From an uncultured Candidatus Saccharibacteria bacterium (GTDB lineage Bacteria > Patescibacteriota > Minisyncoccia > Minisyncoccales > GWA2-38-27), in the NCBI GenBank assembly GCA_964447515.1, contig CAYUSS010000001.1, forward strand, positions 4,092 to 68,091: a stretch of DNA of 64,000 nucleotides, written 5' to 3'. Below the pieces are notes generated by a model. The model saw only the letters and a program-made list of their open reading frames with translations, was not told where the DNA came from and searched no databases. This document shows positions 18,760 through 53,374 of the stretch, one piece after another (position 1 is the stretch's first letter; each line of letters starts with the position of its first letter). The position numbers and the translations under genes are program-made.

Positions 18760-18830
18760 GGGAAAAAGAAAAATTTATTTTTCTTTTTTGACCGAACGAA
18801 GTAATTTCAAGGTTCTGACAAAGTCAGGTT
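18760..18830. repeat. partial copy of the mosaic intergenic repeat
   Basis: cgagggggaaaaagaaaaatttatttttcttttttgaccgaacgaag...caaggttctg matches the 38395-38590 copy and the reverse complement of the 27715-27960 copy. Confidence 0.6.
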
Positions 18831-19292: not shown

Positions 19293-20180
19293 GTGTTATT
19301 ATTTAACTATATGGAAAAAGACATACAAAAAATAACAATAGAAGACAAGAATTATCCGGAACTATTGAAAAAAATTAAAAAAGCACCGAAAACTCTTTAT
19401 TTCAAAGGAGAAATCAAATTTAATCAACCCTGCTTTGCTGTTGTGGGAACCAGAAGATATTCTTCTTACGGCAAGCAAGTTGCCTTGGAAATGGCTGGAG
19501 ATTTGGCAGAAGCTGGATTAATAATTGTTAGCGGCTTGGCTCCGGGAATTGATACTTTTGTTCATACAGCCGTAGTTGAGCGGGGGAAAAGAACAATTGC
19601 CGTACTTGGCACAGGTCTTGATGAAAAAAGCATTTATCCCAGAGAAAATATCAAATTAGCTAGAAAAATTGTTGAATTAGGAGGTTGTTTAATTTCAGAA
19701 TATCCTCCGGGAACTCCGGGCAGTCGTTTTACTTTTCCCGAGAGAAACCGAATAATTTCCGGCCTTTCTTTAGGCGCTCTAATAGTTGAGGCAAAAGAAA
19801 AAAGCGGGGCCTTAATTACGGCAAATTATACTCTCTCCCAAGAAAGAAAGCTCTTGGCTATACCGGGTTCAATTTATGCTTTAAACTCCCGCGGCCCTCA
19901 CATTTTAATAAAAAGAGGGGCAAAATTAGTTGAATCAGCCAATGATATTTTGAAAGAGTTGAACCTCCCTCAAGAATCAACGAGGCCCGTCCTCGTTGAA
20001 GGAGATACCGGAAAAGAAAATCTTATCCTGGATTCTCTAAAACAAGAATCTCTATATATTGACAAAATCATTGAAAAAACTAAACTTTCAGCTGCCACCG
20101 TAGCCAGCATTCTTACTGTTTTAGAAATGAAAGGAAAGGTAAAAAACTTAGGAAGAAACATTTATGCGCTTAGGCGCTAA
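19293..20180 (+). CDS. dprA: DNA processing protein DprA
   Basis: Rossmann-like SGLAPGIDTFVH...GTGLD. An in-frame hairpin repeat at 19979-19997 encodes ESTRPVLVEG. Confidence 0.8.
   Translation: MLLFNYMEKDIQKITIEDKNYPELLKKIKKAPKTLYFKGEIKFNQPCFAVVGTRRYSSYGKQVALEMAGDLAEAGLIIVSGLAPGIDTFVHTAVVERGKRTIAVLGTGLDEKSIYPRENIKLARKIVELGGCLISEYPPGTPGSRFTFPERNRIISGLSLGALIVEAKEKSGALITANYTLSQERKLLAIPGSIYALNSRGPHILIKRGAKLVESANDILKELNLPQESTRPVLVEGDTGKENLILDSLKQESLYIDKIIEKTKLSAATVASILTVLEMKGKVKNLGRNIYALRR
19979..19997. repeat. AACGAGG-CCCGTCC-TCGTT hairpin inside dprA (reverse orientation of the aacgaggacgggcctcgtt unit at 36572)
   Basis: Exact reverse complement of the 36572-36590 unit. Confidence 0.6.
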
Positions 20181-25151: not shown

Positions 25152-25188
25152 AATTACCTTTCCTTAAAATTTTTGGAAGTTTTACATT

Positions 25189-25228
25189 ACGAGGACGGGT
25201 CTCGTTAATGAGACCCGTCCTCGTTTTA
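25189..25228. terminator. 15-bp-stem hairpin acgaggacgggtctc/gagacccgtcctcgt plus T-run (GACGGGT-loop hairpin family) between leuS and glyA
   Basis: Perfect 15-bp stem with a 6-nt loop, then TTT. Confidence 0.6.
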
Positions 25229-27706
25229 AATAACGAAATTAATTAATTTGTCGGGAACAAATATGGTCTTTTTAATCTTTTTTCCCTTTGTCCATTTTAC
25301 TATTTTTTCTTGAGATAAAGCAATTTTTTTAGCTTTTTCTTTGGAAATACCAGCTTCCTTTTCTATCTTATCACGAACCTTACCATTTATCTGAATAATC
25401 AAAGTTATAATCTTTTCTTTAACTAATTTAGGATTATACTGGGGCCATTTCTGCTCATGAATACTTCTTTTATAGCCCAATTGGCGCCAGATTTCCTCGC
25501 TAAGATGAGGGCCAAAAGGAGTAAAAATCTTCAAAAAGTTTTTAAAATCTTTTTTCCCTAAAGCATTTTTATCTAGTTGACAGGCATTACAAAATTCCAT
25601 TAAAGAACTAATAGCTGTATTAAATTTTAAACTTTCTATGTCTTCTGAAACTTTTTTAATAGTCTTATGAATCAATTTTTCCAATTCAGGAGAGCTCTTT
25701 CTTTTCTTTTTCTCCTGGCTAAGGAATTGAGAGCATATTTTCCAGACCCTGTCCAGAAATCTCTTTACTCCATTTAATCCTTTTCTATCCCAGGGAATCA
25801 TTTGCTCAAAAGGGCCCATAAACATTTCATAAATTCTCATAGCATCAGCCCCATAATCTTTTACAGCTTCATCAGGATTAATCACGTTGCCTTTTGATTT
25901 GGACATTTTGACTCCTCCCTGGCCAAGAACTACTCCATGAGCAGTCCGCTTGTTATAAGGCTCAGGTCCCAAAGATTTTGGTACCGCTTTTATATCCCAT
26001 AAAAATTTATAAATAAAACGAGAATATAATAAATGTAAGGTATTGTGTTCCATACCGCCGTTATACCAATCTACCGGCATCCAGTATTTCAGCAATTCTG
26101 GCTTAGCTAATTTTTTATCGTTTTGGGGGCCGCAATAGCGAAGATAATACCAATTAGAGCCAGCCCAATTTGGCATAACATCAGTTTCCCGTCTTGCCGG
26201 GCTGCCACATTTGGGACATTTAGTATTTAGCCATTCTCCGGCTTTCGCTAAGGGTGATTCGCCTTTTTCAGTAGGTTTGTAATTTTTAACTTGAGGCAAT
26301 TTTACCGGTAAATCTTTTTCCGAAACAGCAATCCATTTCTGGCAATTTTTACAAAAAACAAGCGGAATTGGTTCTCCCCAATAGCGCTGCCGAGAAAAAA
26401 TCCAATCTCTTAACTTGTAATAAACAGCTTCTTTAGCCAATCCTTTCTTTTTTAACCAATCCTTAATTCTTTCTTTAGCGGTTTCAGAATTCATTCCATT
26501 AAATCTTCGGGAATTAATTAAAACCCCCTCTCCCCCATAGGGCTCTTTAAAGCTGCCGTCAGAAACAACCAATGGAGCTTTTGAGGGCAGTTCTTTTTTC
26601 TTAGCAAAGGGTTTAATAACTTCAATAATTGGTAAATTATATTTTTTAGCGAAATCAAAATCTCGCTGGTCATGGCCGGGAACTGCCATAATTGCTCCAG
26701 TCCCATAATGCATCAAAACATAATCAGCAATAAAAATAGGAATTTCCCTATTATTAACCGGGTTTATGGCTTTAAGACCTCTTATTTTTATGCCGCTTTT
26801 TTCTTTGTCTTCACTAATTCTTTCTTTTTCTATTTTCTTTTTTGATTTTTCAACATAATCTTTAACAAATTTGTAGTTTTCAATTTGGTCTTTAAGTTTT
26901 TCAATCAAGGGATATTCCGGGGCTAAGACCAAATAAGTACATCCGAACAAAGTGTCTGTTCTGGTAGTAAAAACAGGAATTGATAGTTGAGAATCCGAAA
27001 TAGGAAATTTTATCTCTACTCCTTTACTTTTTCCTATCCATTCTTTTTGAGAAATTTTAATTCTTTCTAAATAATCAACCTTATCTAAATCTTGGATTAA
27101 CCTCTCAGCATACTTGGTTATTTTTAAGAGCCACTGCTCTTTTTCTTTTCTGATAACTTTTGTTCCACAACGTTCGCAGCGATCATTAACTACTTCCTCA
27201 TTAGCCAGTCCGATTTTGCAAGAGGAACACCAGTTTATTGGTATTTTAGCTTTATAAGCCAATCCTTTTTTAAAAAGTTGAATAAATATCCATTGGGTCC
27301 ATTTGTAATAAGATGGGTCGCTAGTATTAATTTCCCGGCTCCAATCAAAAGAAAGTCCCAATCTTTTCAGTTGTTTTTTAAAATTAGCAGTATTTTTTCT
27401 GGTAACAATTCTGGGATGAATTCCGGTCTTAATAGCGTAATTTTCAGTAGGAAGACCAAAAGCGTCCCAACCCATAGGAAATAAAACATTAAAACCTTCC
27501 ATCCTTCTTTTCCGGCTGACTATATCCATCCCTATATAACTTCGACAATGACCGACATGAAGTCCAGTGCCAGAGGGATAAGGGAATTCAACCAAAATAT
27601 AATATTTTTTCTTTTTTGACCTATCAGACGCTTGAAATATCTTTTCTCTTTTCCAAAATCTTTGCCATCTCAGTTCAATTTTTTTAGGGTTATATTTTGA
27701 AATCAT
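25226..27706 (-). CDS. leuS: leucine--tRNA ligase
   Basis: HVGHCRSY (HIGH) and KMSKS. Confidence 0.9.
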   Translation of the reverse strand: MISKYNPKKIELRWQRFWKREKIFQASDRSKKKKYYILVEFPYPSGTGLHVGHCRSYIGMDIVSRKRRMEGFNVLFPMGWDAFGLPTENYAIKTGIHPRIVTRKNTANFKKQLKRLGLSFDWSREINTSDPSYYKWTQWIFIQLFKKGLAYKAKIPINWCSSCKIGLANEEVVNDRCERCGTKVIRKEKEQWLLKITKYAERLIQDLDKVDYLERIKISQKEWIGKSKGVEIKFPISDSQLSIPVFTTRTDTLFGCTYLVLAPEYPLIEKLKDQIENYKFVKDYVEKSKKKIEKERISEDKEKSGIKIRGLKAINPVNNREIPIFIADYVLMHYGTGAIMAVPGHDQRDFDFAKKYNLPIIEVIKPFAKKKELPSKAPLVVSDGSFKEPYGGEGVLINSRRFNGMNSETAKERIKDWLKKKGLAKEAVYYKLRDWIFSRQRYWGEPIPLVFCKNCQKWIAVSEKDLPVKLPQVKNYKPTEKGESPLAKAGEWLNTKCPKCGSPARRETDVMPNWAGSNWYYLRYCGPQNDKKLAKPELLKYWMPVDWYNGGMEHNTLHLLYSRFIYKFLWDIKAVPKSLGPEPYNKRTAHGVVLGQGGVKMSKSKGNVINPDEAVKDYGADAMRIYEMFMGPFEQMIPWDRKGLNGVKRFLDRVWKICSQFLSQEKKKRKSSPELEKLIHKTIKKVSEDIESLKFNTAISSLMEFCNACQLDKNALGKKDFKNFLKIFTPFGPHLSEEIWRQLGYKRSIHEQKWPQYNPKLVKEKIITLIIQINGKVRDKIEKEAGISKEKAKKIALSQEKIVKWTKGKKIKKTIFVPDKLINFVI

Positions 27707-27714: not shown

Positions 27715-27960
27715 AATTCTTAATCATTGCGGCTTCGCCGCATAATTGCGGCGTTCGGTTGAAATACAAAAATAAGAACCTTTCGTCGCTTCGCTCCTCA
27801 AGAACCTTGATTCGCTAGGGTATAATCATATTGCGGCTTCGCCGCATAATTGCTTCGCTCGGTTGAAAAAGAAAAATGAATTTTTCTTTTTCTCCCTCGT
27901 TTGCAATTATAGTCTTGAATTAAATTTTTGTATTTCTCCCTCACTTGCAATTATAACATA
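27715..27960. repeat. mosaic intergenic repeat (two partial tandem copies); inverted partner at 38395-38590
   Basis: attgcggcttcgccgcataattgc occurs twice. The segment 27841-27930 is the near-exact reverse complement of 38399-38488. It contains the palindrome gaaaaagaaaaat..atttttctttttc. Confidence 0.7.
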
Positions 27961-34031: not shown

Positions 34032-34082
34032 AAAAATTGAGGGGGTTAGAAGGTTGGATGGTTAGCTTTTGAATTAAATCTC

Positions 34083-34769
34083 CTAATCTCCTAATCTCCT
34101 AATCTCCTGCCTGAATTCTTTTCTATTTATTAATATCAAAAATCTGATTTTTAGAAGCTGATAGGTCATTTTTAAACGATTTTTAAATCCCTTCAAAAGC
34201 CCCCACTTTTTTTCTTTTATTATTACAGTCAAACCTTTTAACTCTTGATAATGAACCTGCAGTCTATTAATTAAACAATAATAATTTAAAGCCGTCTCAA
34301 TAGCAAATCCTTGGATAAACCTTTCCGGTATATTCTCAAAAACAAAACGTTTCATCGCTCTTTCCCCTCCAATAGCTGAAAGAGAGTCAATTTTAACAAT
34401 AATTTTAGGTAAGCCCCAGTAACGTTCTCTTAATCCCACGCACATTACAGCTTTATTTTCTAAAACAGGCTGGACCAATAAAGAAATATGCTTGATGGTC
34501 AAACCAATTAAATCGGCATCAACAAAAACTATTATTTCAGCTTTAGTGCTTTTTACTCCCTGTTTCATAGCATTACCCTTGCCTCTATTTTCTGACAAGC
34601 TTATCACTTTGGCTCCGAGCTCTGCTGCTATCTCAGCCGTTCTATCCTCTGAACCGTCATCTACTACAATCACTTGAGCAAGGTCTTTTGAATTTAAAAG
34701 CACCTTTAAAACTCTGCCGATATTTTTTTCTTCATTTAAAGCGCAAACAATAGCGGCAACTTTATTCAT
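34083..34769 (-). CDS. family 2 glycosyltransferase (polyprenol-phosphate sugar transferase-like)
   Basis: VVDDGSEDRT...VFVDADL. The C-terminal ...QEIRRLGD is encoded by a tandem ctcctaat x3 repeat at 34075-34100. Confidence 0.7.
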   Translation of the reverse strand: MNKVAAIVCALNEEKNIGRVLKVLLNSKDLAQVIVVDDGSEDRTAEIAAELGAKVISLSENRGKGNAMKQGVKSTKAEIIVFVDADLIGLTIKHISLLVQPVLENKAVMCVGLRERYWGLPKIIVKIDSLSAIGGERAMKRFVFENIPERFIQGFAIETALNYYCLINRLQVHYQELKGLTVIIKEKKWGLLKGFKNRLKMTYQLLKIRFLILINRKEFRQEIRRLGD

Positions 34770-36180
34770 TTAATTTTTCTCTTAAAACCTTAATTAAATC
34801 TTTAATTTTTACTCTTTCCTGTTTCATTGTATCGCGGTATCTGATGGTCAGGTCGTCTTGTTTCAAACTTTCAAAATCGATAGTTAAACACAGACAGGTT
34901 GCCACTTCGTCTTGCCTGCGGTATCTCCTACCAATTGAACCAACTTCGTCATATTGACAAACAAAATGGGATTTTAGTATTTGATAAACCTCTCTAGCTT
35001 TTTTAACCAATTCTGGTTTATTTTTAACTAAAGGCAAAACTGCTACTTTAATTGGGGCTATTTTTTTATCAAGTTTAAGCAAAACTTCATTTTCTTTTGT
35101 TGCTTTTGTTGTCTTAGTTCTTCCGCCTTTTATCTCCTGATAGCCATCAATTAAAAGGGCTAAAAGGGCTCTCTCTATTCCCAATGTCGGCTCAATGACA
35201 TAGGGATAATAATTTTTCTTTTTTCCCTCATCAAAATATTTCAAATCCTTGCCGGAAAACTCATTATGTCTTTTTAAATCGTAATCTCTGCGATTAGCCA
35301 CCCCAGCAAGCTCTGCCCAACCAAAAGGAAACTTATACTCTATATCAACCGTTCTTTTTGAATAGTGAGCCAAACTTTCTTTAGGGTGCTCAAATCTCCG
35401 TAAATTTTTCTTTTTTAATCCCAAATCCAAATAGAACTTTTCCCATTTATTCAGCCAAACCTCAAACCATTTTTCATCCTCTCCCGGCTCAACAAAAAAC
35501 TCAATTTCAGCAAGATCAAATTCCCTGGAACGAAAAGTAAAATCACCGAGAGTAATTTCATTTCGGAAAGACCTGCCAATCTGGGCGATACCAAAGGGAA
35601 TTTTTAATCGCGAGGAATCTAAAACATTTTGAAAATTTGTAAACATTGACTGAGCCGTCTCGGGCCGCAAATAGGTCTGGTGGGCTTTATCTCCAACTGG
35701 TCCCAAAAAGGTCTTGAACATTAGATTGAACATCTTGGGTTCTGTAAAATCTTTGCCCCCACATCCCGGACACTGATTTTTCTCTTTTGCCTCACCCTGA
35801 CCAACAAACCGCGCTGCTGCCAAATGGTCAGCTCTAAATCTGAAATGACATTTTTTACATTCCCTGAGAGGGTCAGTAAAATTCTCTACGTGTCCTGATG
35901 CCTGCCAAACCTTAGGATGCATTAAGACTGTTCCGTCAATTAGAACAATATTATTTTCTCCTAAAACAAAACTCTTTAACCAAAATTCCTTTAAATTATT
36001 TTTCATCAGAGACCCCAAAGGTCCATAATCCCAAAGGCCGGCGACTCCGCCGTAAATTTCTGATGATGGGAAAATAAAACCCCGCCTCTTGGAAAGGGAA
36101 ACGATTTTTTCCATTAAATTAGTTCTGTTTTGTTCTTTACTCATTACATTTAGTATAATATTTTTAAAAGGACTTGACAA
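34762..36180 (-). CDS. glyQS: glycine--tRNA ligase (dimeric class II type)
   Basis: Class II motifs, an insertion with a Zn-binding CxxC cluster, and an anticodon-binding C-terminus. Confidence 0.85.
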   Translation of the reverse strand: MSSPFKNIILNVMSKEQNRTNLMEKIVSLSKRRGFIFPSSEIYGGVAGLWDYGPLGSLMKNNLKEFWLKSFVLGENNIVLIDGTVLMHPKVWQASGHVENFTDPLRECKKCHFRFRADHLAAARFVGQGEAKEKNQCPGCGGKDFTEPKMFNLMFKTFLGPVGDKAHQTYLRPETAQSMFTNFQNVLDSSRLKIPFGIAQIGRSFRNEITLGDFTFRSREFDLAEIEFFVEPGEDEKWFEVWLNKWEKFYLDLGLKKKNLRRFEHPKESLAHYSKRTVDIEYKFPFGWAELAGVANRRDYDLKRHNEFSGKDLKYFDEGKKKNYYPYVIEPTLGIERALLALLIDGYQEIKGGRTKTTKATKENEVLLKLDKKIAPIKVAVLPLVKNKPELVKKAREVYQILKSHFVCQYDEVGSIGRRYRRQDEVATCLCLTIDFESLKQDDLTIRYRDTMKQERVKIKDLIKVLREKLNE

Positions 36181-36201
36181 CGTCTTTTGTTATGATAATA
36201 T
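36174..36201 (+). promoter_or_regulatory. sigma70-type promoter (TTGACA-16-TAATAT) driving the 36208-36563 RNA
   Basis: ttgaca acgtcttttgttatga taatat. Confidence 0.55.
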
Positions 36202-36207
36202 ACATTT

Positions 36208-36563
36208 AGAATTCTTGAGAAAAAGGAGGATAGGCAACAGTAGCCACTCGAAAGGTAAAAAGCCGACTTCTGAGCTCTACGGGGACTACTGTGCTCACGC
36301 ACATACGCCTATCCTCTCAAAATTCCAGCGGCAAGCTCTTTTCCGGGTTCTCCATTGGTCTGTCGGCCGCAACTACCATGCGGTGCGAACCCCTCAACCC
36401 GAGAACCACGGAGAGACTTGCTGCTGGAATAAATAGTTCCCTTTTGGGGAACAAAAGGCGATAAGGAAAAGGTTAGTGGTGCTCTTTTGCAGTGCGACGT
36501 CAAACAGCACACCACGCAGATGACGTCACGACCACAAACCTCTACTTTATCGCCTCTTTTTTT
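36208..36563 (+). ncRNA. large structured ncRNA of unassigned identity (about 355 nt; RNase P-type-B-like GCGGU..AACCCCUC..GAGAACC motif)
   Basis: GC-rich island without a credible ORF, between a canonical promoter and a U-run terminator (ctttatcgcctcttttttt). Long-range pairs ggaggataggc/gcctatcctc and aaggcgataagg/ctttatcgcct. cggtgcgaacccctcaacccgagaacc resembles the B. subtilis RNase P segment GCGGUAAACCCCUCGAGCGAGAAACC. It is flanked by inverted TTGTTATGATAA. Confidence 0.45.
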
Positions 36564-36571
36564 ATCATAAC

Positions 36572-36608
36572 AACGAGGACGGGCCTCGTTGATGAAATCC
36601 GTCCTCGT
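36572..36608. repeat. GACGGGC-loop hairpin repeat aacgaggacgggcctcgtt...ccgtcctcgt
   Basis: Member of the hairpin family, directly after the ncRNA terminator. Confidence 0.6.
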
Positions 36609-36629
36609 ATTGTTTCATATTTCATAAAT

Positions 36630-38336
36630 TTACTGGATTACTCCCATCTCCCTACTTACCGTCTCATCGTCTGGCAAAGTAGTATCTATTGCTGGGGCTA
36701 TATTCTCAATAATTGTCTCTGTCCATTGGTCTTCCCCGCTAATCCTTGCTTCATTAATAATTGAAGCCACCTCTCCCTTTTGTTTTGAAGTAGGAGTTAG
36801 GGCGACTTGGAAAGCAATGTTTGGGGCTGGATTCAAAACCCCTGTCCCTGCTTCCATCATCTCATTATCTCTAACCGACCAAACAATTTCCCTGCTTTGG
36901 TTATCAAAAGTGAATTTTGTGTTTTCTTCTTCAGGAAAAATTTTCCCGGTTAACCTGACGTTAGAAGGCAACATTGCTTTTACCTTTACATTTTTAACAT
37001 CATTAAAATAATTCTTTGCCTGCCAAATTATAACATATCTCGTCTCTTCCCCGACTTTTGGTGGAATTGGCCCTGATTTTCCAAAAATCTCATTCTGATA
37101 ATAACCTTTCTGGGAAATAGCTAATTTTGAATTTACTTTTGTTACAAATTCTTCTTTCATTTGAGAAAGCAAAACCGTATTTTTCAAAAGCCCATTTTTT
37201 TCTTGAGGACTGCTAATTTCCCATTTTTCTTTGAGATTTATCCAAAACTCAACTTTACCTTCCTCCCCTTGCCCTAAAAAGCGAAGCTTAGAAATATCCT
37301 CATAGTCCCACATTATAGAATTATCTCCTTTACTGAATTGACCATTATTTATTTTTATAGTTTCGAAATCAAATCCATCACCCCCTAAACTAACTGCTAA
37401 AAACAAATCTCTAAAAGGGTCTTCTCCAATGTTTCTAAAATAAATTTCGTAATGAAGCAAATCTCCGGAATTGGCAATGTAGTTATCTTGCTTATTTATT
37501 TGCTGGAAAACAAAAAGACGAGGTTCGGCAATTTCCACCCCTCTGGTTATTTTTTTTATTGGAATAAATTCATTTTCTAACCAAATACCAAGAATAGCTT
37601 GGAAAATTTTTTGCTCTTTAAACTCTCCTAATAACTTTCCTTTAATTTCAACTCTTCCTCCCTCAGCTCTATTTAAAAGAGGAATTTCCCATTCTGTTTT
37701 CCCCAATGTTTCGGGTTCACTTTCCAAAAATTCAAAACCTGAAGGATATTCAATTTTTATTCCAAGATTGCTAAGAGGATAATCCAAACTGGAAAAATAA
37801 TTCAAAGAAAAATTGAAATCTCTGCCTGTTTCTACTTTTGAAGGAAGGTCAAACTCAAGAGTTAAAGGAACTGATTTGACCACGGTGGTAAAAGTAGTAA
37901 CTGACTCATAGCGGGCTTTTAAATTTTTCGGCCGACAACTCAACCAAACCTTAGCTGTCTTCGCTTCGTTTTCTCTCCCAAAAAGCCTTCCCTTAAACTG
38001 GAAAGTTCTTTCTTCACCGGGATAAATATCTCCTAATTCTTCCGGTCCTATTTCTTGTCTTCGGGAAAGATTTTCTTCTCCTTCAGCTTCATTATCCGAA
38101 GAAATAATAGTATGTTCTGGAAATTCAAAAATAAGTTGTGGTTCTTCTAATCTAACATTGCCATTATTTTTATATTTCACCGTATATTCAACTTCCTGAA
38201 AAATCGCTGTTTCTTCGGGACCTAAAATTTCCAATTTCAAAATTTCCTTTGAGTAAGGGTTTCTTTGCCAATACCAAAAACCAGCAATTCCCAAAACTAA
38301 AGCTAAAATTATAATAAAAAAAATAAATTTCTTCAT
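36630..38336 (-). CDS. large hypothetical secreted/membrane-anchored protein (568 aa)
   Basis: N-terminal TM/signal; beta-rich, with no diagnostic motif. Confidence 0.5.
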   Translation of the reverse strand: MKKFIFFIIILALVLGIAGFWYWQRNPYSKEILKLEILGPEETAIFQEVEYTVKYKNNGNVRLEEPQLIFEFPEHTIISSDNEAEGEENLSRRQEIGPEELGDIYPGEERTFQFKGRLFGRENEAKTAKVWLSCRPKNLKARYESVTTFTTVVKSVPLTLEFDLPSKVETGRDFNFSLNYFSSLDYPLSNLGIKIEYPSGFEFLESEPETLGKTEWEIPLLNRAEGGRVEIKGKLLGEFKEQKIFQAILGIWLENEFIPIKKITRGVEIAEPRLFVFQQINKQDNYIANSGDLLHYEIYFRNIGEDPFRDLFLAVSLGGDGFDFETIKINNGQFSKGDNSIMWDYEDISKLRFLGQGEEGKVEFWINLKEKWEISSPQEKNGLLKNTVLLSQMKEEFVTKVNSKLAISQKGYYQNEIFGKSGPIPPKVGEETRYVIIWQAKNYFNDVKNVKVKAMLPSNVRLTGKIFPEEENTKFTFDNQSREIVWSVRDNEMMEAGTGVLNPAPNIAFQVALTPTSKQKGEVASIINEARISGEDQWTETIIENIAPAIDTTLPDDETVSREMGVIQ

Positions 38337-38394: not shown

Positions 38395-38590
38395 TTTAAT
38401 TCAAGACTATGATTGCAAACGAGGGAGAAAAAGAAAAATTCATTTTTCTTTTTCAACCGAGCGAAGCAATTATGCGGCGAAGCCACAATATGATTATACC
38501 TTAGCGAATCAAGGTTCTGCCGACTTCGTCTGGCCAGAGACCGACTTCGTCGAGCCGACGGCCGAGCGTTAGCGAGGCAGATTCTTAAAT
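38395..38590. repeat. mosaic intergenic repeat, inverted copy of 27715-27960
   Basis: ttcaagactatgattgcaaacgagggagaaaaagaaaaattcatttttctttttcaaccgagcgaagcaattatgcggcgaagccacaatatgattata... is the reverse complement of the 27781-27930 copy. Confidence 0.7.
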
Positions 38591-38899: not shown

Positions 38900-41767
38900 T
38901 TAAATTTTCTTAATCCCCAGCCATAATGTTTCCTTATTAACTTTTGCTTCTTTTTTAATTTCAAATTTTATTTTTAATTCCTCTCCGAGCTTAAAATCTT
39001 TAGCCAGAGTTTCTTTCAGAATAAAATCTCTTTTTCTGTTTAAAATTTTATTCAGATGAGTTGGGCCCTGGGCTTGAACTAAAATTTTATCTTTGGGCTT
39101 CAAGCCAGCTTTCTTTCTCAGAGCTTGAATATGTCGAATAACCTCCCGAGCAACTCCTTCCTCTTTAAGTTCTTTTGTAATTTTAGTATCTAATTCTATT
39201 TCTTCGCCAAAAGTAATTTTCTTAACATTAACTTCATCTTTTATTAAATCCAATAAACCTTTTGCTTTTCTTAATTCTTGATTCCTGATTCTTAATTCTT
39301 TCAATGGCTGCCTCACTCTTATCCCTGCTTCTGCCCTCAGACCCAAGGATTGAGTAACAACTTCCCGAACCTGCTCCATTTTTTCTTCTAAATCTGAATT
39401 AATTAATTTTTTATCTGGCTCTGGGTAATCACACAAGTGAACTGATTTTTCTGCGCCATTTAATTTTTGATACAGCTCTTCAGCAATAAAAGGAGTAAAA
39501 GGAGCTATTAGTTTAGTTAGTTTTAAAAGCACATAATATAAAGTTTGAGAGGCCTCTTCTTTTATCTCTTTTGTCTCTGGTCTTTGAAATCTCTTTCGAG
39601 AACGCCGGATATACCAGTTAGATAAATCATCAACAAAATCCTCAAATAATCTAGTCGCCTCCACCACATAGTATTTATCTAAATTTTCTATAATCTGCTG
39701 GCAAAGGTTCTGGAACTGAGAAACAATCCATTTATCAAGTAAGTTTTTGGGGCTAAAATTCTTTTGGGGCTTGAATTTCTTATCAGTATAAGTGGAAAAG
39801 AAAAGGTAAGAATTCCATAAAGTACCAAGGAATCGCCGAGAAATTTCCTGAACATCTTTGAAATCAAATCTTTTGGGTTCTGCTGCCGGATTTATTGTAT
39901 AAAAGTAAAAGCGAGCAGAGTCAGCGCCAAATTTATCAATAACATCTTTTGGCCAAACAACATTGCCTTTTGATTTTGACATTTTCTGGCCCTTAGCATC
40001 CAAAACAATGCCATGGGAGATAACATTTTTGTAAGCCGGGCCCAAATTAAGCAAAGTAGAAACAGCTAACAAAGTATAAAACCAGCCCCTGGTCTGGTCA
40101 ATGCCCTCGCATATAAAATCAGCTGGGAAAAAATTCTTTTTATCAATTTTTTCTTTATTCTCAAAAGGATAATGCCATTGAGCATAAGGCATTGAACCCG
40201 AGTCAAACCAACAATCAACTACTTCAGGAATTCGTCTCATTAGGCCTCCGCACTTTTCACACTTAAAAGTAGCTTTATCAATGGAAGGACGGTGCAAATC
40301 TTGTAACTTGTAACTTGTAACTTGTAACTTTTTTAATTCGTTTAAACTACCAACACAAATTTGCTTATCGCACTTTTCACACTGCCAAATCGGCAAAGGC
40401 GTGCCCCAATATCTTTCCCGAGATAAATTCCAATCTTTAACCTCCCGCAGCCACTCGCCAAACCGCCCATCTTTAAGATAATCTGGTATCCAATTAATTT
40501 TTTTATTATTTTCAAGCAGTTTTTTTCTCAAACCTGACATCTTAATAAACCAAGAGGTCTTGGCGTAATACAATAATGGGCTGTCGCACCGCCAGCAAAA
40601 AGGATAATCGTGTTCATACAGTTCTTTTTTATAAAGTAAATTTCTTTTTTGAAGACTGGCAGTAATTTCTGGGTCAGCGTCTTTTACAAATTTACCTGCC
40701 CAAGGTTTAACTTCTTTTTTAAAAGTACCATCTTCGTTCACTGTTATCAAAATCGGTAAGTCATTTTGCTTGCCAACTTCCATATCCTCCTCTCCAAAAG
40801 CCGGCGCGATATGAACAATACCAGTGCCTTCTTCAGTAGAAATAAAATCACCGGCAACAACCTTAAAAGCTGGCTTCTCTGTTTTCATAAAATCAAATAG
40901 CGGTTCGTATTCTAATTCTAAAAGCTTTTTACCTTTTATTTCTTCAACAATTTTGCCTTTGACGCCACAAGCCTTAAACCTCTCTTTGGCTAAAATCAAA
41001 TATTCATTATTTACTTTCACCTTTGCATAAATAAATTTTGGGTTGACCGCTAATGCTACGTTTGCAGGCAGTGTCCAAGGCGTGGTTGTCCATACTAAAA
41101 GAAAGGTATTAAATTTTTTATTTTTAATTTGTGTTTTTGATTTTTTATTTTTTATTTTTAACTTTAAGAAAATAGCTGGCTCAGATATTTTCTTATATCC
41201 CTGAGCTACTTCATGAGAAGAGAGAGAAGTGCCACAGCGAGGACAATAAGGAACAACTTTGTAATCTTGGTACAAAAGACCCTTTTCCCAAATCTTTTTT
41301 AAAATCCACCACAAACTCTCAATATAATCATTACTGCAGGTAATGTAAGCGTTTTTTAAATCTAGCCAAAAACCAATTCGTTCTGTAAAATCCTCCCATT
41401 CTTTTTTATAAGTGAAAACACTATTCTGACAGGTTTCAATAAATTTCTTAATCCCGATTTTCTCTATGTCTTTTTTAGATTTAATTCCCAGTTTTTTTTC
41501 CGCCTCCATTTCCGTTGGCAAACCATGCGTATCCCAACCAGCCTTTCTTTCAACAGAAAAGCCCTGCATTGTCTTATAACGGAGAATTACATCTTTGAAG
41601 GCCCGGGACAAAAGATGATGAATTCCGGGCAACCCATTAGCAAAAGGCGGTCCTTCAAAAAAAACAAACCTTTTGCCTTTTTTGGTCTTTTTAAGGCTTT
41701 TCTCAAAAATCTTCTTTTCTTTCCAGAATTTTAATATTTTTTCTTCAATTTGCGGAAAATCCATCAT
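38900..41767 (-). CDS. ileS: isoleucine--tRNA ligase
   Basis: HHLLSRAFKDVILRY (HIGH-type), KMSKSKGN, and C-terminal Zn CxxC pairs. It contains the in-frame (CTTGTAA)4 tract and a K-rich low-complexity insertion near 41100-41170. Confidence 0.9.
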   Translation of the reverse strand: MMDFPQIEEKILKFWKEKKIFEKSLKKTKKGKRFVFFEGPPFANGLPGIHHLLSRAFKDVILRYKTMQGFSVERKAGWDTHGLPTEMEAEKKLGIKSKKDIEKIGIKKFIETCQNSVFTYKKEWEDFTERIGFWLDLKNAYITCSNDYIESLWWILKKIWEKGLLYQDYKVVPYCPRCGTSLSSHEVAQGYKKISEPAIFLKLKIKNKKSKTQIKNKKFNTFLLVWTTTPWTLPANVALAVNPKFIYAKVKVNNEYLILAKERFKACGVKGKIVEEIKGKKLLELEYEPLFDFMKTEKPAFKVVAGDFISTEEGTGIVHIAPAFGEEDMEVGKQNDLPILITVNEDGTFKKEVKPWAGKFVKDADPEITASLQKRNLLYKKELYEHDYPFCWRCDSPLLYYAKTSWFIKMSGLRKKLLENNKKINWIPDYLKDGRFGEWLREVKDWNLSRERYWGTPLPIWQCEKCDKQICVGSLNELKKLQVTSYKLQDLHRPSIDKATFKCEKCGGLMRRIPEVVDCWFDSGSMPYAQWHYPFENKEKIDKKNFFPADFICEGIDQTRGWFYTLLAVSTLLNLGPAYKNVISHGIVLDAKGQKMSKSKGNVVWPKDVIDKFGADSARFYFYTINPAAEPKRFDFKDVQEISRRFLGTLWNSYLFFSTYTDKKFKPQKNFSPKNLLDKWIVSQFQNLCQQIIENLDKYYVVEATRLFEDFVDDLSNWYIRRSRKRFQRPETKEIKEEASQTLYYVLLKLTKLIAPFTPFIAEELYQKLNGAEKSVHLCDYPEPDKKLINSDLEEKMEQVREVVTQSLGLRAEAGIRVRQPLKELRIRNQELRKAKGLLDLIKDEVNVKKITFGEEIELDTKITKELKEEGVAREVIRHIQALRKKAGLKPKDKILVQAQGPTHLNKILNRKRDFILKETLAKDFKLGEELKIKFEIKKEAKVNKETLWLGIKKI
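40301..40330. repeat. 30-bp heptanucleotide tandem repeat (CTTGTAA)4 inside ileS, in-frame, encoding KLQVTSYKLQ
   Basis: cttgtaacttgtaacttgtaacttgtaact, identical to 43711-43740 in argS. Confidence 0.8.
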
Positions 41768-42331: not shown

Positions 42332-44008
42332 TTACATTTTTTCAGGACTAGAAATTCCCATTAAATCTAAAATATTTTTTAGAACAATTTTTGTTGCTTG
42401 AACTAAATTCAGCCGGGCTTGGGTTAAATTTTCATCGTCCCCAATCACTCGACATTCCTCATAAAATTTATGAAAAGCTGTTACCAATTCTAAAGCAAAT
42501 TGGGGCAAGCGCTGAAGTTGATAATCTTTAGCTGTATCCTCAACAACTTCTGGAAATCTAATCAACTGCCTTGTCAAATCCATCTCGCTCGGCTCGTCAA
42601 GTAAATTGTCGATCGACAATTTACTTGATGGCGATTTTTTAATCTTTTTTGCTTCTGCTTTTCGGAGAATGCTGGAGATTCGGGCGTGGGCGTATTGGAT
42701 GTAATAAACCGGGTTTTTCTTTGATTGTTTCTTGGCTAATGCCATATCAAAATTTAAGTGAGTATTAGCTGATTTTTGTAAGAAAAAGAATCGAGTAACA
42801 TCTTTTCCAACTTCATTGAGTAATTCGTCCATTGTCACATAAATGCCTTTTCTTTTGGACATTTTTACTTTTTCCTTTTTTTCCAAAAGAGTGACAAACT
42901 GTAAAAGGATGATATCTAATTTTCCCTTATGACCCAAAGCCGCAACTCCAGTCCGCAACCCCTGAACACCGCCAGCGTGGTCAGCTCCCCAGATGTTTAT
43001 TACTTTGTCAAATTTCTTTTTTTTAAATTTATATTTATGGTAAGTAATATCACCGGCTAAATAAGTTTTTGTTCCGTCTTTTTTAACTAAAACTCTGTCT
43101 CTATTATCTCCGAATTTTTTACTTCTAAAAAATTCAGCCCCTTCTTTTTGATAAATTAATTTTTTCTTTTTTAAAAAATTCAAAACTTTGTCAACCTCTC
43201 CGGATTCATAAAGCGTATTCTCGGAAAACCATTCATCAAATTTAATCCCCATTTTCTCAGTTGTTTTCTTGAGCATCTCATCAACTATTATTTTAGCTGC
43301 CTTTTGGCCTGCCTTATATGGGTCTTTCTCCTTAATTTTTTTGTGGAGATAATCAATATACTTTCCTTTATATTTGGCCTCTTTGTCTTTCAAAACCGAA
43401 TGGCCTAAAGCCAAAATCTGATTTCCATAATCATTAATATAATAAGCTTTCTCTACTTTAAAACCAGCTTTTTTCAAAACATTTCCCAAAACATCGCCAA
43501 AAGGACCACTCCGGGCATTACCGACTGTCAAAGGTCCTGTCGGATTAGCGGAAATAAACTCAACCTGAATTTTTTTATTTTTGCCAATATCTAAATCACC
43601 AAATTTCTCGCCTTGCTTCAAAATTTCTCCAACCTGTTTTTGTAAGTATTCTTTACACAAATAAAAATTTATAAAGCCGGGTTTGGCTATTTTGATTCCT
43701 TCAAATAAACCTTGTAACTTGTAACTTGTAACTTGTAACTTTATAACTTCTGCTATCTCTAATGGCTTCCTTTTCAAAACTCTCGTCAATTGCAAACCAA
43801 TGTTTGAAGAATAATCTCCAAACTCCTTATTCTCCGGCCTTTCAACTTCAATTTTCGGTAACTTTTTCAATTTAAATTCCTCTTTAACTGCCTTTTTAAT
43901 TAATTTTTTAAGCTCATCTCTAATCATTCTTTTAGTATAGTTTATTTTAACTCTCGATTCAACTCTCCCCCGCCGCACTTTGTGCAGCAGGGTTTTTTTA
44001 TTGCTCAA
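42332..44008 (-). CDS. argS: arginine--tRNA ligase
   Basis: Class I catalytic core and DALR anticodon-binding C-terminus. It contains the same in-frame (CTTGTAA)4 tract. Confidence 0.85.
   Translation of the reverse strand: MSNKKTLLHKVRRGRVESRVKINYTKRMIRDELKKLIKKAVKEEFKLKKLPKIEVERPENKEFGDYSSNIGLQLTRVLKRKPLEIAEVIKLQVTSYKLQGLFEGIKIAKPGFINFYLCKEYLQKQVGEILKQGEKFGDLDIGKNKKIQVEFISANPTGPLTVGNARSGPFGDVLGNVLKKAGFKVEKAYYINDYGNQILALGHSVLKDKEAKYKGKYIDYLHKKIKEKDPYKAGQKAAKIIVDEMLKKTTEKMGIKFDEWFSENTLYESGEVDKVLNFLKKKKLIYQKEGAEFFRSKKFGDNRDRVLVKKDGTKTYLAGDITYHKYKFKKKKFDKVINIWGADHAGGVQGLRTGVAALGHKGKLDIILLQFVTLLEKKEKVKMSKRKGIYVTMDELLNEVGKDVTRFFFLQKSANTHLNFDMALAKKQSKKNPVYYIQYAHARISSILRKAEAKKIKKSPSSKLSIDNLLDEPSEMDLTRQLIRFPEVVEDTAKDYQLQRLPQFALELVTAFHKFYEECRVIGDDENLTQARLNLVQATKIVLKNILDLMGISSPEKM
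43711..43740. repeat. 30-bp (CTTGTAA)4 tandem repeat inside argS, in-frame, encoding KLQVTSYKLQ
   Basis: Identical 30-mer to 40301-40330. Confidence 0.8.
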
Positions 44009-44033: not shown

Positions 44034-44486
44034 ATGATGACGGTTTTGGCTTACAATCGAAAGGCAATCTATAATTACGAAATCCTGGAGAAATTTGAAG
44101 CGGGCATGGTTTTGATTGGCCAGGAAGTGAAATCAATAAAGTCAGGAAGAATGAGTTTAAAAGGTTCTTATGTAGTTTTAAAAGGAGAAGAGCCCTTTTT
44201 AATCGGGGCTAATATCCCTGCTTATCAGCCAAAAAATGCGCCCCCGGATTATAACCCGGAAAAATCCAGAAAGCTTCTTTTGAATAAATTAGAAATCAAA
44301 CGTTTAATCGGCAAAACCAAAGAAAAGGGCTTGACTTTGGTGCCCTTAAGGGCGTATACTAAAAGAGGTAAAATAAAGCTTGAATTCGGAATTGCCAAAG
44401 GAAGAAAAAAAACCGATAAAAGAGAAATAATTAAAAAAAGAGAAGCCGAAAGGGAAATGAAAAGGGAACTAAAAACCCGGGGGTGA
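44034..44486 (+). CDS. smpB: SsrA-binding protein SmpB
   Basis: MMTVLAYNRKAIYNYEILEKFEAGMVLIGQEVKSIKSG... Confidence 0.9.
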   Translation: MMTVLAYNRKAIYNYEILEKFEAGMVLIGQEVKSIKSGRMSLKGSYVVLKGEEPFLIGANIPAYQPKNAPPDYNPEKSRKLLLNKLEIKRLIGKTKEKGLTLVPLRAYTKRGKIKLEFGIAKGRKKTDKREIIKKREAEREMKRELKTRG

Positions 44487-44828
44487 AAGTTTCGACAGAA
44501 GATTTTACTAAAATAGGGCAAGCCGAGTATTCTCAAATCTCGTAAAACTTTGAGAAAAAAATAAGTGCTAACTTATTCAAAAAACCTGCGTTAGCATTTG
44601 CCTAACGCCATCAGGATTACCGATTCTCGCTAAGTAATCTCTGGTGTAATAATTAGCGAGATAGATAGTTTTTTCTTCGCCTCAAAATAATTATCAAAAC
44701 TTTTCGAGGTCAGGATATTAAGCTTTTTGTCTGTTTTCTACTTGGTATCCGAGACTAAAACAGACTAAGTTTGTAGAACTGTTTTAGCAAAACTTCTGGA
44801 CAAGGGTCCAATCCCTTCATCTCCACAA
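44479..44828 (+). ncRNA. ssrA: tmRNA (SsrA), about 350 nt; proposed tag ANLFKKPALAFA
   Basis: Starts at gggggtgaaagtttcgacag (tRNA-like 5' end) overlapping the smpB stop. The 3' end has the T-arm agggtccaatccct and the acceptor strand tcatctcc, which pairs with the 5' GGGGGUGA. The internal frame gct aac tta ttc aaa aaa cct gcg tta gca ttt gcc taa codes ANLFKKPALAFA then stop. Confidence 0.75.
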
Positions 44829-48194: not shown

Positions 48195-48195
48195 A

Positions 48196-48278
48196 CCCCG
48201 TAGAAGAATTTCGAATTAAAAATTTCTTCGAAATTTTTTATTTGCCCCGCAGGGGCCTTTCGAAATTTCTCTACGGGG
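48196..48278. repeat. palindromic element with CCCCGTAGAAGAATTTCGA / TCGAAATTTCTCTACGGGG arms (CCCCGTAGAA family)
   Basis: The arms are near-identical to the 1981-2058 copy but the core differs (contains ccccgcagggg). Confidence 0.6.
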
Positions 48279-48345
48279 TATAATAATATCTCTCTTTATC
48301 TTAATCCTAAATTATAAAAAATAAAACCCAAAAAAAATTATTAGA

Positions 48346-48374
48346 CTTGACAGTTTTTTTTAAATGACTAATAT
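48346..48374 (+). promoter_or_regulatory. sigma70-type promoter (TTGACA-17-TAATAT) driving the 48381-48809 RNA
   Basis: ttgaca gttttttttaaatgac taatat. Confidence 0.55.
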
Positions 48375-48380
48375 AACATA

Positions 48381-48809
48381 GAGTGCGAGGGAAGGTCCAA
48401 AATGCATTGCCCGGTATAGCTGAAAATAGTGATTACGAACACTGAGGAAAACCCGCTTTCAGCAAGCTGGGCAATGCAGCAATTATTTTTTAGAAATCTG
48501 GTCTGTCCGAGAACAGCACAGTAGAGGTAAAAGGCTCCGCACTATAATAGGGCAAATAACCTGCTACACAGCGCTCGGCAGCACCGGAGCCCCGCTTGAG
48601 CGGGGCGCAATAGTTCTTTCAGATTTGGGATGGTGAAAAGGCAACGATAGAGGCTTCCCGCTTAGCACCCCCCCCAAGCCCCTATGTCGTTTTTTCTCAT
48701 AGCCGTCCTATTATATAGGGTTGTGAAAAAAGTTGTGTCTCAGTTCCCATCAAGACACGGCTACTCCTTTCTCAACCCCGGCCGGGCTAACACTAGTCCG
48801 GCTTTTTTT
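48381..48809 (+). ncRNA. rnpB: large structured ncRNA, best candidate for RNase P RNA (type A-like)
   Basis: GC-rich and non-coding, with a promoter upstream and the terminator gccgggctaacactagtccggc+TTTTTTT. Motifs occur in RNase P order: gaggtaaaaggctccgc...atagggcaaataacctg (compare GAGGAAAGUCCGGGCUCCAUAGGGCA..GGUAAC), a GC hairpin gccccgcttgagcggggc, ggtgaaaaggcaacgatagaggc (compare GGUGAAANGGUGCGGUAAGAGCGC), and acacggctac near the 3' end (compare ACAGAAcCCGGCUUA). The 5' gagggaagg can pair with the 3' cctttctc (P1-like). This is a hand comparison only. Confidence 0.45.
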
Positions 48810-48824
48810 ATTCACCCCGTTTAG

Positions 48825-48846
48825 AAATTCACGATTTCTAACGGGG
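48825..48846. repeat. CCCCGT(T)AGAAAT...ATTTCTAACGGGG hairpin; supplies the polX stop codon
   Basis: ccccgtttagaaattcacgatttctaacgggg. The polX C-terminal ...KPR plus TAG stop is read from it. Confidence 0.55.
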
Positions 48847-50568
48847 TTTAAAATATTTTAATAATTTTTCCAAAGGTCGGGTGTTAATTATGTCTTTTTT
48901 CTCCGCCCAGCCGCGGCGAGCCTGGTATACTCCGAATTCCATATATCTCATCTGGCTTTTGTGATGACTATCAGTATTAATGACCAATCTCACTCCCATT
49001 TCAATGGCTTTTTTTATATTGATGTCGTTTAAATCTAATCTTCCAGGAAAAGAATTTATTTCTAAAATTGTATTGGTTTCTTGGGCGGCTCTTAAAATTT
49101 TTTCTATATCTATTTGGTATTCATCTCTCTTTTTTAAAATTCTTCCGGTTGGATGGGAAATAATTTTAATATAGGGGTTTTTCATTGCTTGAATTATCCT
49201 CTCGGTCATCTTTTCTTTTGACATTTTAAAGTTGGAGTGAATCCCGGCAATGGCATAGTCCAATTTTTTTAATGCCTCATCTTTAATATCAATGGAACCG
49301 TCATTTAAGATATTGGTTTCTGCTCCTTGAAGAATTCTAAACTTTATATTTTGTATCTTGTATTTCCTGTTTAATTTATCTATTTCTTCCCGCTGCTGAG
49401 CTAATTGTTCCTCATTTAATCCCTGTTCAATTCGTAAAAATTTTGTATGGTCAGTAATCCCTAAATATTCATATCTTCGCACCATAGCCATATCTTCCAT
49501 CTCTTTAATTGAATTTTGCCCTCCATCCCATTTTGAATGACAATGTAAATCCCCCCTTATATCTTTTAATTCTACTAATTTTGGCAATTTTCTTTTTAGA
49601 GCGGCTTCAATTTCCCCTTGATTTTCTCTTATTTCCGGAGGAATCCATTGGAGGCCAAGAACTTTATAAACACCTTCTTCGGTTTTGCCGGCAATCATTT
49701 TCTTGCCCCGAAAAACCCCGTATTCATTAAGTTTTAAACCTTTCTCTAGGGCAATTTTTCTGGTAGCAATATTATGCTCTTTTGAACCAATAAAATACTG
49801 CAGAGCAGAACCATAACTTTTTTCAGGAACCACCCTGAGATCCATATCAAAACCATCTCTCATTCGGACCGAGGACTTTGTTGCGCCTCTACCCCAAATT
49901 CTAATAACTCCTGGCAAAGAAACAAAAAAATCCATTATTTTTTTTGGATTTTTTGAAATTACCAAGAAATCAACATCACCGATTGTTTCTTTCCTTCTTC
50001 TAACCGAACCGGCTACTGAAATTTTCTGAACCTCCTTTAAATTTTTAAGTTTTTCTTCAATTTCTTTAACAATGGGTAAAATATTCCCTAAAAGAAATCT
50101 TCCCTTACTTTTCTTTAAGAAAGCGATTCCCTCTAAAATATTTTTCTCTGTTTTTATTCCAAAACCTTCTAAATTTCTAATTTTCCTGGCTTTAGCGACT
50201 TTTTCTAAATCTTTTAGGTCCTTCACTCCAAGTTCTTGAAAAAGAACTTTTGCTCTTTTAGGCCCCATTCCTTCAACCTTTGTTATCTCTTCTAAATTTA
50301 GAGGCAGTTTCTTTTTAAATTTTTCGTAATATTTAATCTTTCCTGTTTTTAGATATTCTTCAATTTTTTGGGCAATGCTTTCCCCAACACCGGGAATTTC
50401 TTCAAGCGCCTTAATCCCTCCTCTTTCATAAATCTCCTTAACATCCCTCTCTAAGGATTCTAAATTAAGAGCGGCTTTTTGGTAAGCATAGGGCTTAAAT
50501 TGAACTTCTTCTATTTCTAAGAAGTAAGCTATCTCGAAAAAAATCTTAGCCAATTCCTGGTTATTCAT
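48838..50568 (-). CDS. polX: DNA polymerase X family protein with C-terminal PHP domain
   Basis: HhH motifs, Pol-beta-like GSVRRRKETIGDVDFLV, and the PHP domain HCHSKWDGG...DHT. Confidence 0.85.
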   Translation of the reverse strand: MNNQELAKIFFEIAYFLEIEEVQFKPYAYQKAALNLESLERDVKEIYERGGIKALEEIPGVGESIAQKIEEYLKTGKIKYYEKFKKKLPLNLEEITKVEGMGPKRAKVLFQELGVKDLKDLEKVAKARKIRNLEGFGIKTEKNILEGIAFLKKSKGRFLLGNILPIVKEIEEKLKNLKEVQKISVAGSVRRRKETIGDVDFLVISKNPKKIMDFFVSLPGVIRIWGRGATKSSVRMRDGFDMDLRVVPEKSYGSALQYFIGSKEHNIATRKIALEKGLKLNEYGVFRGKKMIAGKTEEGVYKVLGLQWIPPEIRENQGEIEAALKRKLPKLVELKDIRGDLHCHSKWDGGQNSIKEMEDMAMVRRYEYLGITDHTKFLRIEQGLNEEQLAQQREEIDKLNRKYKIQNIKFRILQGAETNILNDGSIDIKDEALKKLDYAIAGIHSNFKMSKEKMTERIIQAMKNPYIKIISHPTGRILKKRDEYQIDIEKILRAAQETNTILEINSFPGRLDLNDINIKKAIEMGVRLVINTDSHHKSQMRYMEFGVYQARRGWAEKKDIINTRPLEKLLKYFKPR

Positions 50569-53308: not shown

Positions 53309-53347
53309 ATACGAGACCCGACCTCGTAACGAGGTCGGGTCTCGTAT
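53309..53347. terminator. 39-bp perfect palindrome atacgagacccgacctcgt aa cgaggtcgggtctcgtat (GTCGGGT-loop hairpin on both strands), bidirectional terminator candidate
   Basis: 19-bp perfect arms, followed by ttacgttttt. Confidence 0.6.
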
Positions 53348-53374
53348 TTACGTTTTTATAAGAACCTGCCTCGC

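Follow-up and report, generated by a model that had tools for sequence, protein, structure and literature searches.

The large non-coding RNAs (ncRNAs) raiA, OLE, ROOL and GOLLD, which are associated with GC-rich intergenic regions (GC-IGRs), have been defined by many covarying homologues, and all of them are represented in Rfam. RNase P RNA carries two conserved segments, CR-I (GAGGAAAGUCC) and CR-V (ACAGAAnnnGGCUUA), that together form helix P4. Miniature inverted-repeat transposable elements (MITEs), the Correia elements of Neisseria, the Rickettsia palindromic elements and the pneumococcal BOX elements are small non-coding insertions in intergenic DNA. Here, these systems are compared with a locus found in a 64-kb stretch of contig CAYUSS010000001.1 (hereafter the window, numbered from its first letter). 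The locus, at positions 36208-36563, is the core of a 485-nt insertion (36145-36629) that separates glyS, the glycyl-tRNA synthetase (GlyRS) gene, from a gene encoding a DUF11/DUF7619-like protein. Judged from its sequence features, it has in our view roughly an even chance of being a stand-alone gene, acquired recently, that encodes a structured RNA of 355-410 nt on the plus strand, and it belongs to no described RNA family. Because candidate-phyla-radiation genomes are very small and tightly packed, half a kilobase of promoter-bearing, folded ncRNA is conspicuous; it is made more so by the interruption of two genes whose translation is coupled in relatives, and by the presence of an unrelated cassette of the same design 12 kb away.

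The insertion is bounded on one side by the start codon of glyS (34762-36144, minus strand; class II core and anticodon-binding domain) and on the other by the stop codon, at 36630, of the DUF11-like gene (36630-38336, minus strand; 568 residues). Both genes are on the minus strand and the candidate RNA is on the plus strand, i.e. antisense to them. A reading of this DNA from the letters alone (hereafter the original prediction) had proposed a canonical TTGACA-16-TAATAT promoter with transcription starting 7 nt further on, and this is borne out: the sigma-70-type promoter TTGACA-16-TGaTAATAT (36174-36201, plus strand) has its -35 box at 36174-36179 and the hexamer of an extended -10 element at 36196-36201, and matches the consensus, this being a consensus match only, at 10/12 positions in addition to the TG. 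The predicted transcription start, 7 nt past the -10, is position 36208. The promoter is 76% similar over 46 nt to a native promoter region of the window (54021-54066). From this start, the predicted RNA body (36208-36563, plus strand; 356 nt, 50% GC) extends to a run of seven U (U7, 36557-36563), the presumed 3' end. The GC content of the RNA island is 0.50-0.57 (0.50-0.52 for positions 36200-36500), as compared with 0.355 for the window and 0.30-0.40 for the flanks. The U-run terminator that had been proposed stands only in part: the U7 run is present, but it follows a 100-nt hairpin, which makes the terminator non-canonical, and the terminator scan made no call there. Next comes the GC-rich hairpin ACGAGGACGG-N16-CCGUCCUCGU (36573-36608), which belongs to a family typical of this genome, in line with the hairpin-family repeat that had been noticed 3' of the locus. 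On sequence grounds, it is possible that this hairpin serves as a second terminator of the RNA or as the terminator of the convergent DUF11-like gene, and owing to its presence the RNA 3' end would be at either 36563 or ~36612. Hairpins of the same family (ACGAGGnCGGG...CCCGnCCTCGT; 19976-19999, 25184-25229, 36572-36609 and 53310-53350) lie for the most part where genes end and are likely to represent a terminator type characteristic of the genome, often devoid of a clear U-tail. As in a stand-alone ncRNA gene, a promoter and a U7 run with its hairpin, all of them consensus matches only, bracket a non-coding segment.

The element is also bracketed by a perfect 12-bp inverted repeat. The repeat of the original prediction is thus real, although its arms are located at 36187-36198 (TTGTTATGATAA) and 36562-36573 (TTATCATAACAA) and not at 36184-36195 and 36556-36567. 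The left arm covers part of the promoter spacer, runs into the start of the -10, and therefore lies upstream of the predicted RNA start, while the right arm comes immediately after the U-run. Terminal inverted repeats, a hallmark of MITEs, are hence present at 36187-36198 and 36562-36573. Perfect 12-mer inverted pairs 200-600 nt apart number ~13 in the window, and the chance that a 12-bp pair brackets the element within ~25 nt of both ends is estimated at ~0.003-0.01.

Folding of the plus strand returns a minimum free energy of -146 kcal/mol (z = -10.2, with 0/100 shuffles equal; z = -10.9 in a repeat run), which agrees with the GC-rich structured segment of ~355 nt described earlier. The predicted fold comprises three long hairpin domains and one small hairpin, enclosed by an 8-bp A/U helix (36218-36225 with 36556-36563) in which the U7 run pairs with a 5' A-tract. 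Domain 1 (36226-36316; z = -3.5) has a 10-bp stem, GAGGAUAGGC/GCCUAUCCUC, closing a branched A-rich interior. Domain 2 (36322-36430) is a bulged stem of ~28 bp with the tip hairpin GGCCGCA-ACUACCA-UGCGGU. The small hairpin GUUCCCU-UUU-GGGGAAC (36436-36452) is terminator-like when read on the minus strand, where its stem is followed by UAUUUAUU. Domain 4 (36456-36555) is a long irregular hairpin with the U7 run directly 3' of it, and its base is one of the two long-range complementarities reported at the outset, AGGCGAUAAGG/CUUUAUCGCCU (36456-36466/36545-36555); the other, GGAGGAUAGGC/GCCUAUCCUC (36225-36235/36307-36316), is equally confirmed. Domains 2 and 4 fold better as plus strand than as minus strand (z -8.6 vs -5.0 and -7.0 vs -5.0, respectively). 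Unpaired bases of the plus-strand fold are rich in A (49%, against 17% for U) and poor in G (6%), a loop bias shared with tmRNA and with the RNA of the second cassette described below, whereas the MITE-like repeat of the window is symmetric.

No gene is called in the 485-nt gap on the 6 public contigs with gene tables, and a six-frame pseudo-protein search against 5.8 billion proteins returned no homologue for any reading frame; a full HMMER search with the 88-codon stop-free frame of the minus strand reported repetitive, spurious matches only. With no called gene and no protein homologue, a protein-coding gene at 36208-36563 is rejected, and the view that the segment holds no plausible open reading frame (ORF) is upheld. 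A tRNA with an intron is rejected too, since ARAGORN finds none at the locus. Rfam 15 analysis of the window at the gathering threshold reports a tmRNA (44479-44828, where it had been predicted) and two tRNA-Leu genes, nothing else, and no match at 36208-36563. With permissive filters (E<=10; 601-nt and 368-nt queries), the covariance scan does not return any RNase P, signal recognition particle (SRP), 6S, T-box, intron or riboswitch match, and those hits that it does return at the locus are at chance level (unrelated eukaryotic or short families; E 0.29 to 8.5). The RNA is thus indeed unassigned, no family being given by the covariance scan at either threshold. For want of a covariance-model match on either strand, tmRNA, SRP RNA, 6S RNA, group I/II introns, riboswitches, HEARO, OLE, GOLLD, ROOL and raiA are rejected. 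The same applies to a T-box leader of glyS, as there is no RF00230 match and most relatives have 0-35 nt before glyS. Genes within ~10 kb of the locus are all of housekeeping type (aminoacyl-tRNA synthetases, ribosomal proteins, SmpB, a peptidase and others). Not one of them encodes a reverse transcriptase, a nuclease or a recombinase, on which basis retrons, diversity-generating retroelements and guide-RNA systems (msr-msd, omega RNA, bridge RNA, TIGR) are rejected.

The original prediction had reported a segment resembling a type-B RNase P motif in this RNA and an RNase P candidate at 48381-48809, had argued by elimination that 36208-36563 was something else, and had considered that one of the two loci might be mis-assigned. 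These proposals fail. RNase P RNA of class A or B (RF00010, RF00011) is rejected at 36208-36563, with no covariance-model match at the gathering threshold or at E<=10, and 48381-48809, scanned in the same permissive way, has no Rfam support. Since some candidate-phyla-radiation RNase P RNAs are diverged and were found with lowered thresholds (PMC8172020), motif scans and a comparison with the RNase P RNA of a relative were added. Neither CR-I (<=2 mismatches) nor, on the plus strand, CR-V (<=3 mismatches) occurs within 36208-36563, and their window-wide counts are at chance. In the related Patescibacterium L025, the same covariance scan gives 187 bits to an RNase P RNA of canonical class A type (5584-5950), which lies ~4 kb upstream of the L025 glyS and carries textbook GAGGAAAGUCC and ACAGAAUUCGGCUUA. 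Searched with nhmmer against the window, this RNA shows no similarity, the best hit (E 0.19) lying at an unrelated place. As neither locus has an Rfam match and the canonical RNA of a relative resembles nothing here, neither 36208-36563 nor 48381-48809 is RNase P; the elimination argument, which took the latter as a recognisable RNase P RNA, falls with it, and the RNase P RNA of the host must lie outside the window, elsewhere in the genome. The segment that had been likened to RNase P sits in Domain 2; its short resemblance to a type-B RNase P segment serves as a lead only. As the true RNase P RNAs of relatives are readily recognised, elimination is no basis for assigning a GC-rich structured island of these genomes to RNase P.

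The window is chromosomal (35.5% GC) and belongs to the Patescibacteria (Parcubacteria-type), the closest named GlyRS relatives being metagenome-assembled genomes labelled 'Patescibacteria group', 'Parcubacteria' and 'Candidatus Nealsonbacteria'. The order DUF11-like gene followed by glyS is kept in 25 related species-level loci, in 16 of which (16/25) the two genes are spaced by 0-35 nt, and the homology of the gene upstream of glyS in relatives was confirmed. In the relative with 88% GlyRS identity (L084), 23 nt separate the called genes (15 nt by tblastn); the junction is also short in L086 (83%) and L085 (80%), and in L118, whose glyS is 87.6% identical at the nucleotide level, the stop codon runs into the start codon in a TAATG overlap. 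None of the relatives examined has the cassette at this junction. Because the flanking genes are 0-35 nt apart in most relatives, the 485-nt cassette represents a species-level insertion. The suggestion of acquisition or mobility is therefore retained for acquisition, by synteny rather than through the inverted repeat, and not for multi-copy mobility, as no second copy was found. The 485-nt gap occurs only in same-strain contigs, namely three from Logan and three from JGI assemblies; a comparison over 21 kb shows one mismatch among them, in L087. Eight contigs, each from a different metagenome sample, carry the cassette without a single base change, and it is therefore a stable part of the genome of this population. 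No flanking direct repeat indicative of a target-site duplication is visible, though the junction sequences have diverged; the empty sites in relatives are clear.

The DUF11-like/glyS junction is an insertion hot spot, since several other lineages carry inserts of their own there, mutually unrelated (L007, 3107-3474; L029, 5404-5883; L017, 9390-10000; L009, 9140-10000; L026, 9567-10000). None of the five has an Rfam family match or any likeness to the 36208-36563 RNA. The insert of L007 is a GC-rich palindrome (z -5.5), and in that of L029 a TTGACT-17-TAATAT promoter and a terminator accompany a segment of 430 nt.

Homologues of the candidate RNA were sought in a set of 80, later 117, related loci totalling 1.6 Mb. 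Neither nhmmer (including --max) nor blastn returned any among the 117 loci, and a covariance model (R1), built on Domain 2 to Domain 4, found none over the 1.6 Mb of related contigs and the same-genome extensions. Blastn against phage and plasmid collections was negative, and viral contigs scanned for an exact 26-mer and for pseudo-peptide patterns yielded no match. A pattern scan of metagenome contigs gave no match either, a weak negative given that the collection missed the JGI contigs holding the identical sequence. No second copy is present in the 64-kb window, in ~10 kb past its far end or in the 1.6 Mb of related loci; at the near end, the contigs obtained do not reach past the window, so that the extension is beyond the far end only. 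Lack of conservation in related genomes had been named in the original prediction as a ground for refuting it, and with no homologue in 1.6 Mb, a conserved RNA family is not supported.

A second cassette (48195-48837, plus strand; RNA body 48381-48809) lies at the place of the former RNase P candidate. It possesses a TTGACA-16-TAATAT promoter (48347-48374), 50% GC and a canonical terminator, and it is antisense to PolX and NUDIX genes, which are 643 nt apart here and spaced by 2-35 nt in seven relatives, one of them with 86% PolX identity. It has no Rfam match and no homologue at the PolX/NUDIX junction of relatives, and the two RNA bodies are dissimilar in sequence. The segment 48381-48809 is an insertion in its own right, unrelated to the first although built on the same promoter design, and is not RNase P. 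The context GACTTGACA...TAATATAnCAT is common to the two promoters, and the two cassettes share this design (GACTTGACA-N16-TAATATAnCAT), the GC content, the antisense orientation to an operon, a terminator with a U-run, an empty junction in relatives and the absence of an Rfam match. The second cassette differs in its canonical terminator, in its strand-asymmetric fold (z -5.6 for the plus strand vs -2.1 for the minus strand) and in the CCCCGT...ACGGGG palindromes that it has in place of the 12-bp inverted repeat; these palindromes (CCCCGTnnAGAAATT...AATTTCTnnACGGGG) flank it at 48198-48278 and 48816-48849.

If the locus is an RNA gene, the following sequence of events may be envisaged. RNA polymerase would start ~7 nt past the near-consensus extended -10 element, and ~355 nt would be transcribed and fold, as predicted, into three irregular hairpin domains of ~100 nt and the small hairpin. 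Pairing between the 5' A-tract and the 3' U-tract would close the domains and stabilize the RNA, with transcription stopping at the U7 run or at the next GC hairpin. The product would most likely be a stable RNA, protein-free or protein-binding, acting in trans. Side effects in cis are to be expected as well, because the cassette is antisense inside a gene pair that is tightly or translationally coupled in relatives. It splits the formerly coupled DUF11-like/glyS operon, and its hairpins and U-tracts lie in the sense read-through path (36452-36436; Domain 1 followed by CCUUUUUCUC), where they could act on transcripts entering from the DUF11-like gene. A divergent promoter-like site for glyS, TTGTCA-17-TATACT (36152-36180, minus strand), is located within the inserted DNA and overlaps the -35 box of the RNA promoter; this new promoter (36180-36152), with a -35 region common to both, might drive glyS. 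The site ends ~7 nt ahead of the ATG at 36144, leaving almost no leader, and an ATG at 36114 aligns with the glyS start region of relatives. This arrangement suggests that the glyS mRNA may be leaderless, or that the downstream ATG 36114 may be used instead.

Several observations weigh against a stand-alone RNA gene. As no homologue was found in any collection searched, support from conservation or covariation is nil, and the eight identical contigs provide no variation among copies. The terminator is non-canonical. The minus strand folds nearly as well as the plus strand (z -7.9 to -8.7), there are 10 G-U pairs in the plus-strand fold and 11 in the minus-strand fold, and MITE-like foldbacks of the same genome reach similar z-scores; near strand symmetry and G-U parity are the pattern expected of young DNA palindromes. 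The cassette might accordingly be a selfish or neutral palindromic insertion (MITE, REP or Correia type) or a hairpin cluster, whose fold is a by-product and whose promoter is incidental or captured, an alternative that ranks ahead of all the others and that we consider possible while leaning clearly away from it. In addition to the symmetry of the fold, it would explain the presence/absence polymorphism with respect to all relatives, the precise bracketing by a perfect 12-bp inverted repeat, the company of a 268-nt foldback in two copies, a 124-nt repeat and hairpin families in the window, and the unrelated inserts at the same hot spot in other lineages. It fits poorly with a single copy in the window, its ~10-kb extension and 1.6 Mb of related genomes, with three independent hairpins rather than one foldback, with the lack of a visible target-site duplication, with a -35 box outside the repeat-bounded segment and with A-rich, G-poor loops on the promoter strand, when the genuine MITE here is symmetric. 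Moreover, junk DNA would be unlikely to have its structure framed this exactly, by a promoter close to consensus at one end and a U7 run at the other. The stand-alone RNA gene is favoured by these exact ends, by the native architecture of its promoter, by the single copy and the absence of a single foldback, by the better folding of Domains 2 and 4 as plus strand, by the loop bias shared with tmRNA, and by the parallel second cassette with the same promoter design and antisense placement.

Other explanations were considered. The cassette would be an operon insulator or antisense regulator acting in cis if it ended DUF11-like transcription and restarted that of glyS, with the antisense RNA or the overlapping -35 as modulator and no function in trans. 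We regard this as improbable: a GC-rich structure of ~355 nt exceeds the need when other gene ends here use 36-45-nt hairpins, there is no sign that glyS needs separate regulation in this species only, and the RNA overlaps neither coding region; the terminator-like hairpin of the minus strand (36452-36436), Domain 1 with the ensuing CCUUUUUCUC, the -35 region shared with the divergent glyS promoter (36180-36152), the ancestral TAATG overlap and a second cassette likewise antisense between coupled genes speak in its favour. That a highly divergent housekeeping RNA (RNase P, SRP or 6S) was missed by Rfam in a candidate-phyla-radiation genome is scarcely credible, even if ~355 nt fits the size of RNase P RNA and diverged candidate-phyla-radiation RNase P RNAs have been reported (PMC8172020). 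No RNase P, SRP or 6S match emerges at E<=10 with the 368-nt query, the plus strand has no CR-I and CR-V (P4) motifs, the 187-bit class A RNA of the relative is unlike anything in the window by nhmmer, the three independent hairpins offer no P4-type long-range core, and an essential RNA would not vanish from the locus in all relatives and be devoid of homologues. Finally, the 12-bp repeats could be the recombination sites of an invertible DNA switch, in which a 363-bp flip would swap the -10 TAATAT for a weak TAAAAA and change the transcribed strand. The left arm falls right on the edge of the -10 element, the right arm comes directly after the U-run, and from the sequence an inversion would keep the -35 and the repeat in place while changing the -10. 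Nevertheless, no recombinase or invertase gene is present within ~10 kb, eight independent assemblies show one orientation, and 12 bp is short for known invertase sites, so that we hold such a switch to be very improbable.

In sum, and as far as sequence analysis goes, the locus is a new orphan among stand-alone structured ncRNAs or intergenic cassettes, and a new class is not demonstrated. A wider proposition, which we find doubtful, is that 36208-36563 and 48381-48809 exemplify an undescribed phenomenon of Patescibacteria: non-homologous RNA gene cassettes acquired at species level, placed antisense in coupled housekeeping junctions, each combining a strong promoter of native type with a terminator and a GC-rich folded RNA of 350-430 nt, and each encoding a new functional large RNA (e.g. 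a ribonucleoprotein scaffold, a decoy or a ribozyme) and not junk DNA. Functional RNAs at these loci would add new members to the large RNAs of bacteria and would show that reduced genomes gain RNA genes quickly. If the cassettes are selfish palindromic insertions, mobile hairpin DNA would reshape operons and create promoters in reduced genomes.

Other repeated or structured elements were observed in the window and in a related locus. The 268-nt foldback element occurs as two inverted copies, 93% identical (54067-54334 and 58342-58609), with 30-nt terminal inverted repeats and z-scores of -10 to -14. Its termini resemble the T-arm and acceptor end of a tRNA (GGTAGTTCGAATCCTGCCGGGC), with no Rfam or tRNA match. 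The two copies bracket a 4-kb, four-gene segment in a manner reminiscent of composite elements, and a same-strain JGI contig breaks inside this segment. The 124-nt intergenic repeat (27801-27924 and 38395-38518, inverted, 98% identical; partial third copy at 18743-18806) is probably a further intergenic element of small size, mobile or repeated. Short motifs, in tandem or dispersed, recur at gene boundaries (34069-34120 and 59519-59578; 40296-40339 and 43707-43750; 9603, 22472, 23019 and 31597): AATCTCCT and TTGTAAC occur four times each, and repeats of the GGTCGGGTGTTCAA type at four sites between genes. In the related locus L101, a GC-rich (0.58) intergenic island (16385-16660, minus strand; z -2.7) exhibits a closing helix, GGGGGUGGG...CCCACCCC, with a canonical terminator behind it; Rfam gives no match for the island at the gathering threshold. 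One more small RNA lacking annotation, possibly akin to 6S or SRP RNA, may be encoded there.

Regarding the known systems, 36208-36563 resembles RNase P RNA in its length, in its organization as a stand-alone gene of the stable-RNA type, in the short likeness within Domain 2, and in an AAAUAG-plus-hairpin segment. It differs from RNase P RNA in that it has neither a covariance-model match nor the P4 core formed by CR-I and CR-V, nor the P1-P4 topology. With MITEs, the Correia and Rickettsia palindromic elements and BOX, it has in common that it is a small non-coding intergenic insertion with inverted repeats, that both of its strands can fold, that it can carry promoter elements and that it is present or absent among close relatives. 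Unlike them, it is single-copy as far as seen, has no visible target-site duplication and is not one foldback, its loops are strand-biased and its -35 box is located outside the repeats. As to the GC-IGR-type large ncRNAs, raiA, OLE, ROOL and GOLLD, the locus matches none of these families, is devoid of homologues in the data searched and is a species-level insertion rather than a conserved locus. It nevertheless shares with them a long GC-rich intergenic region without an ORF, an extensive predicted fold with A-rich loops, a promoter and a terminator of its own, and the lack of an obvious partner gene.

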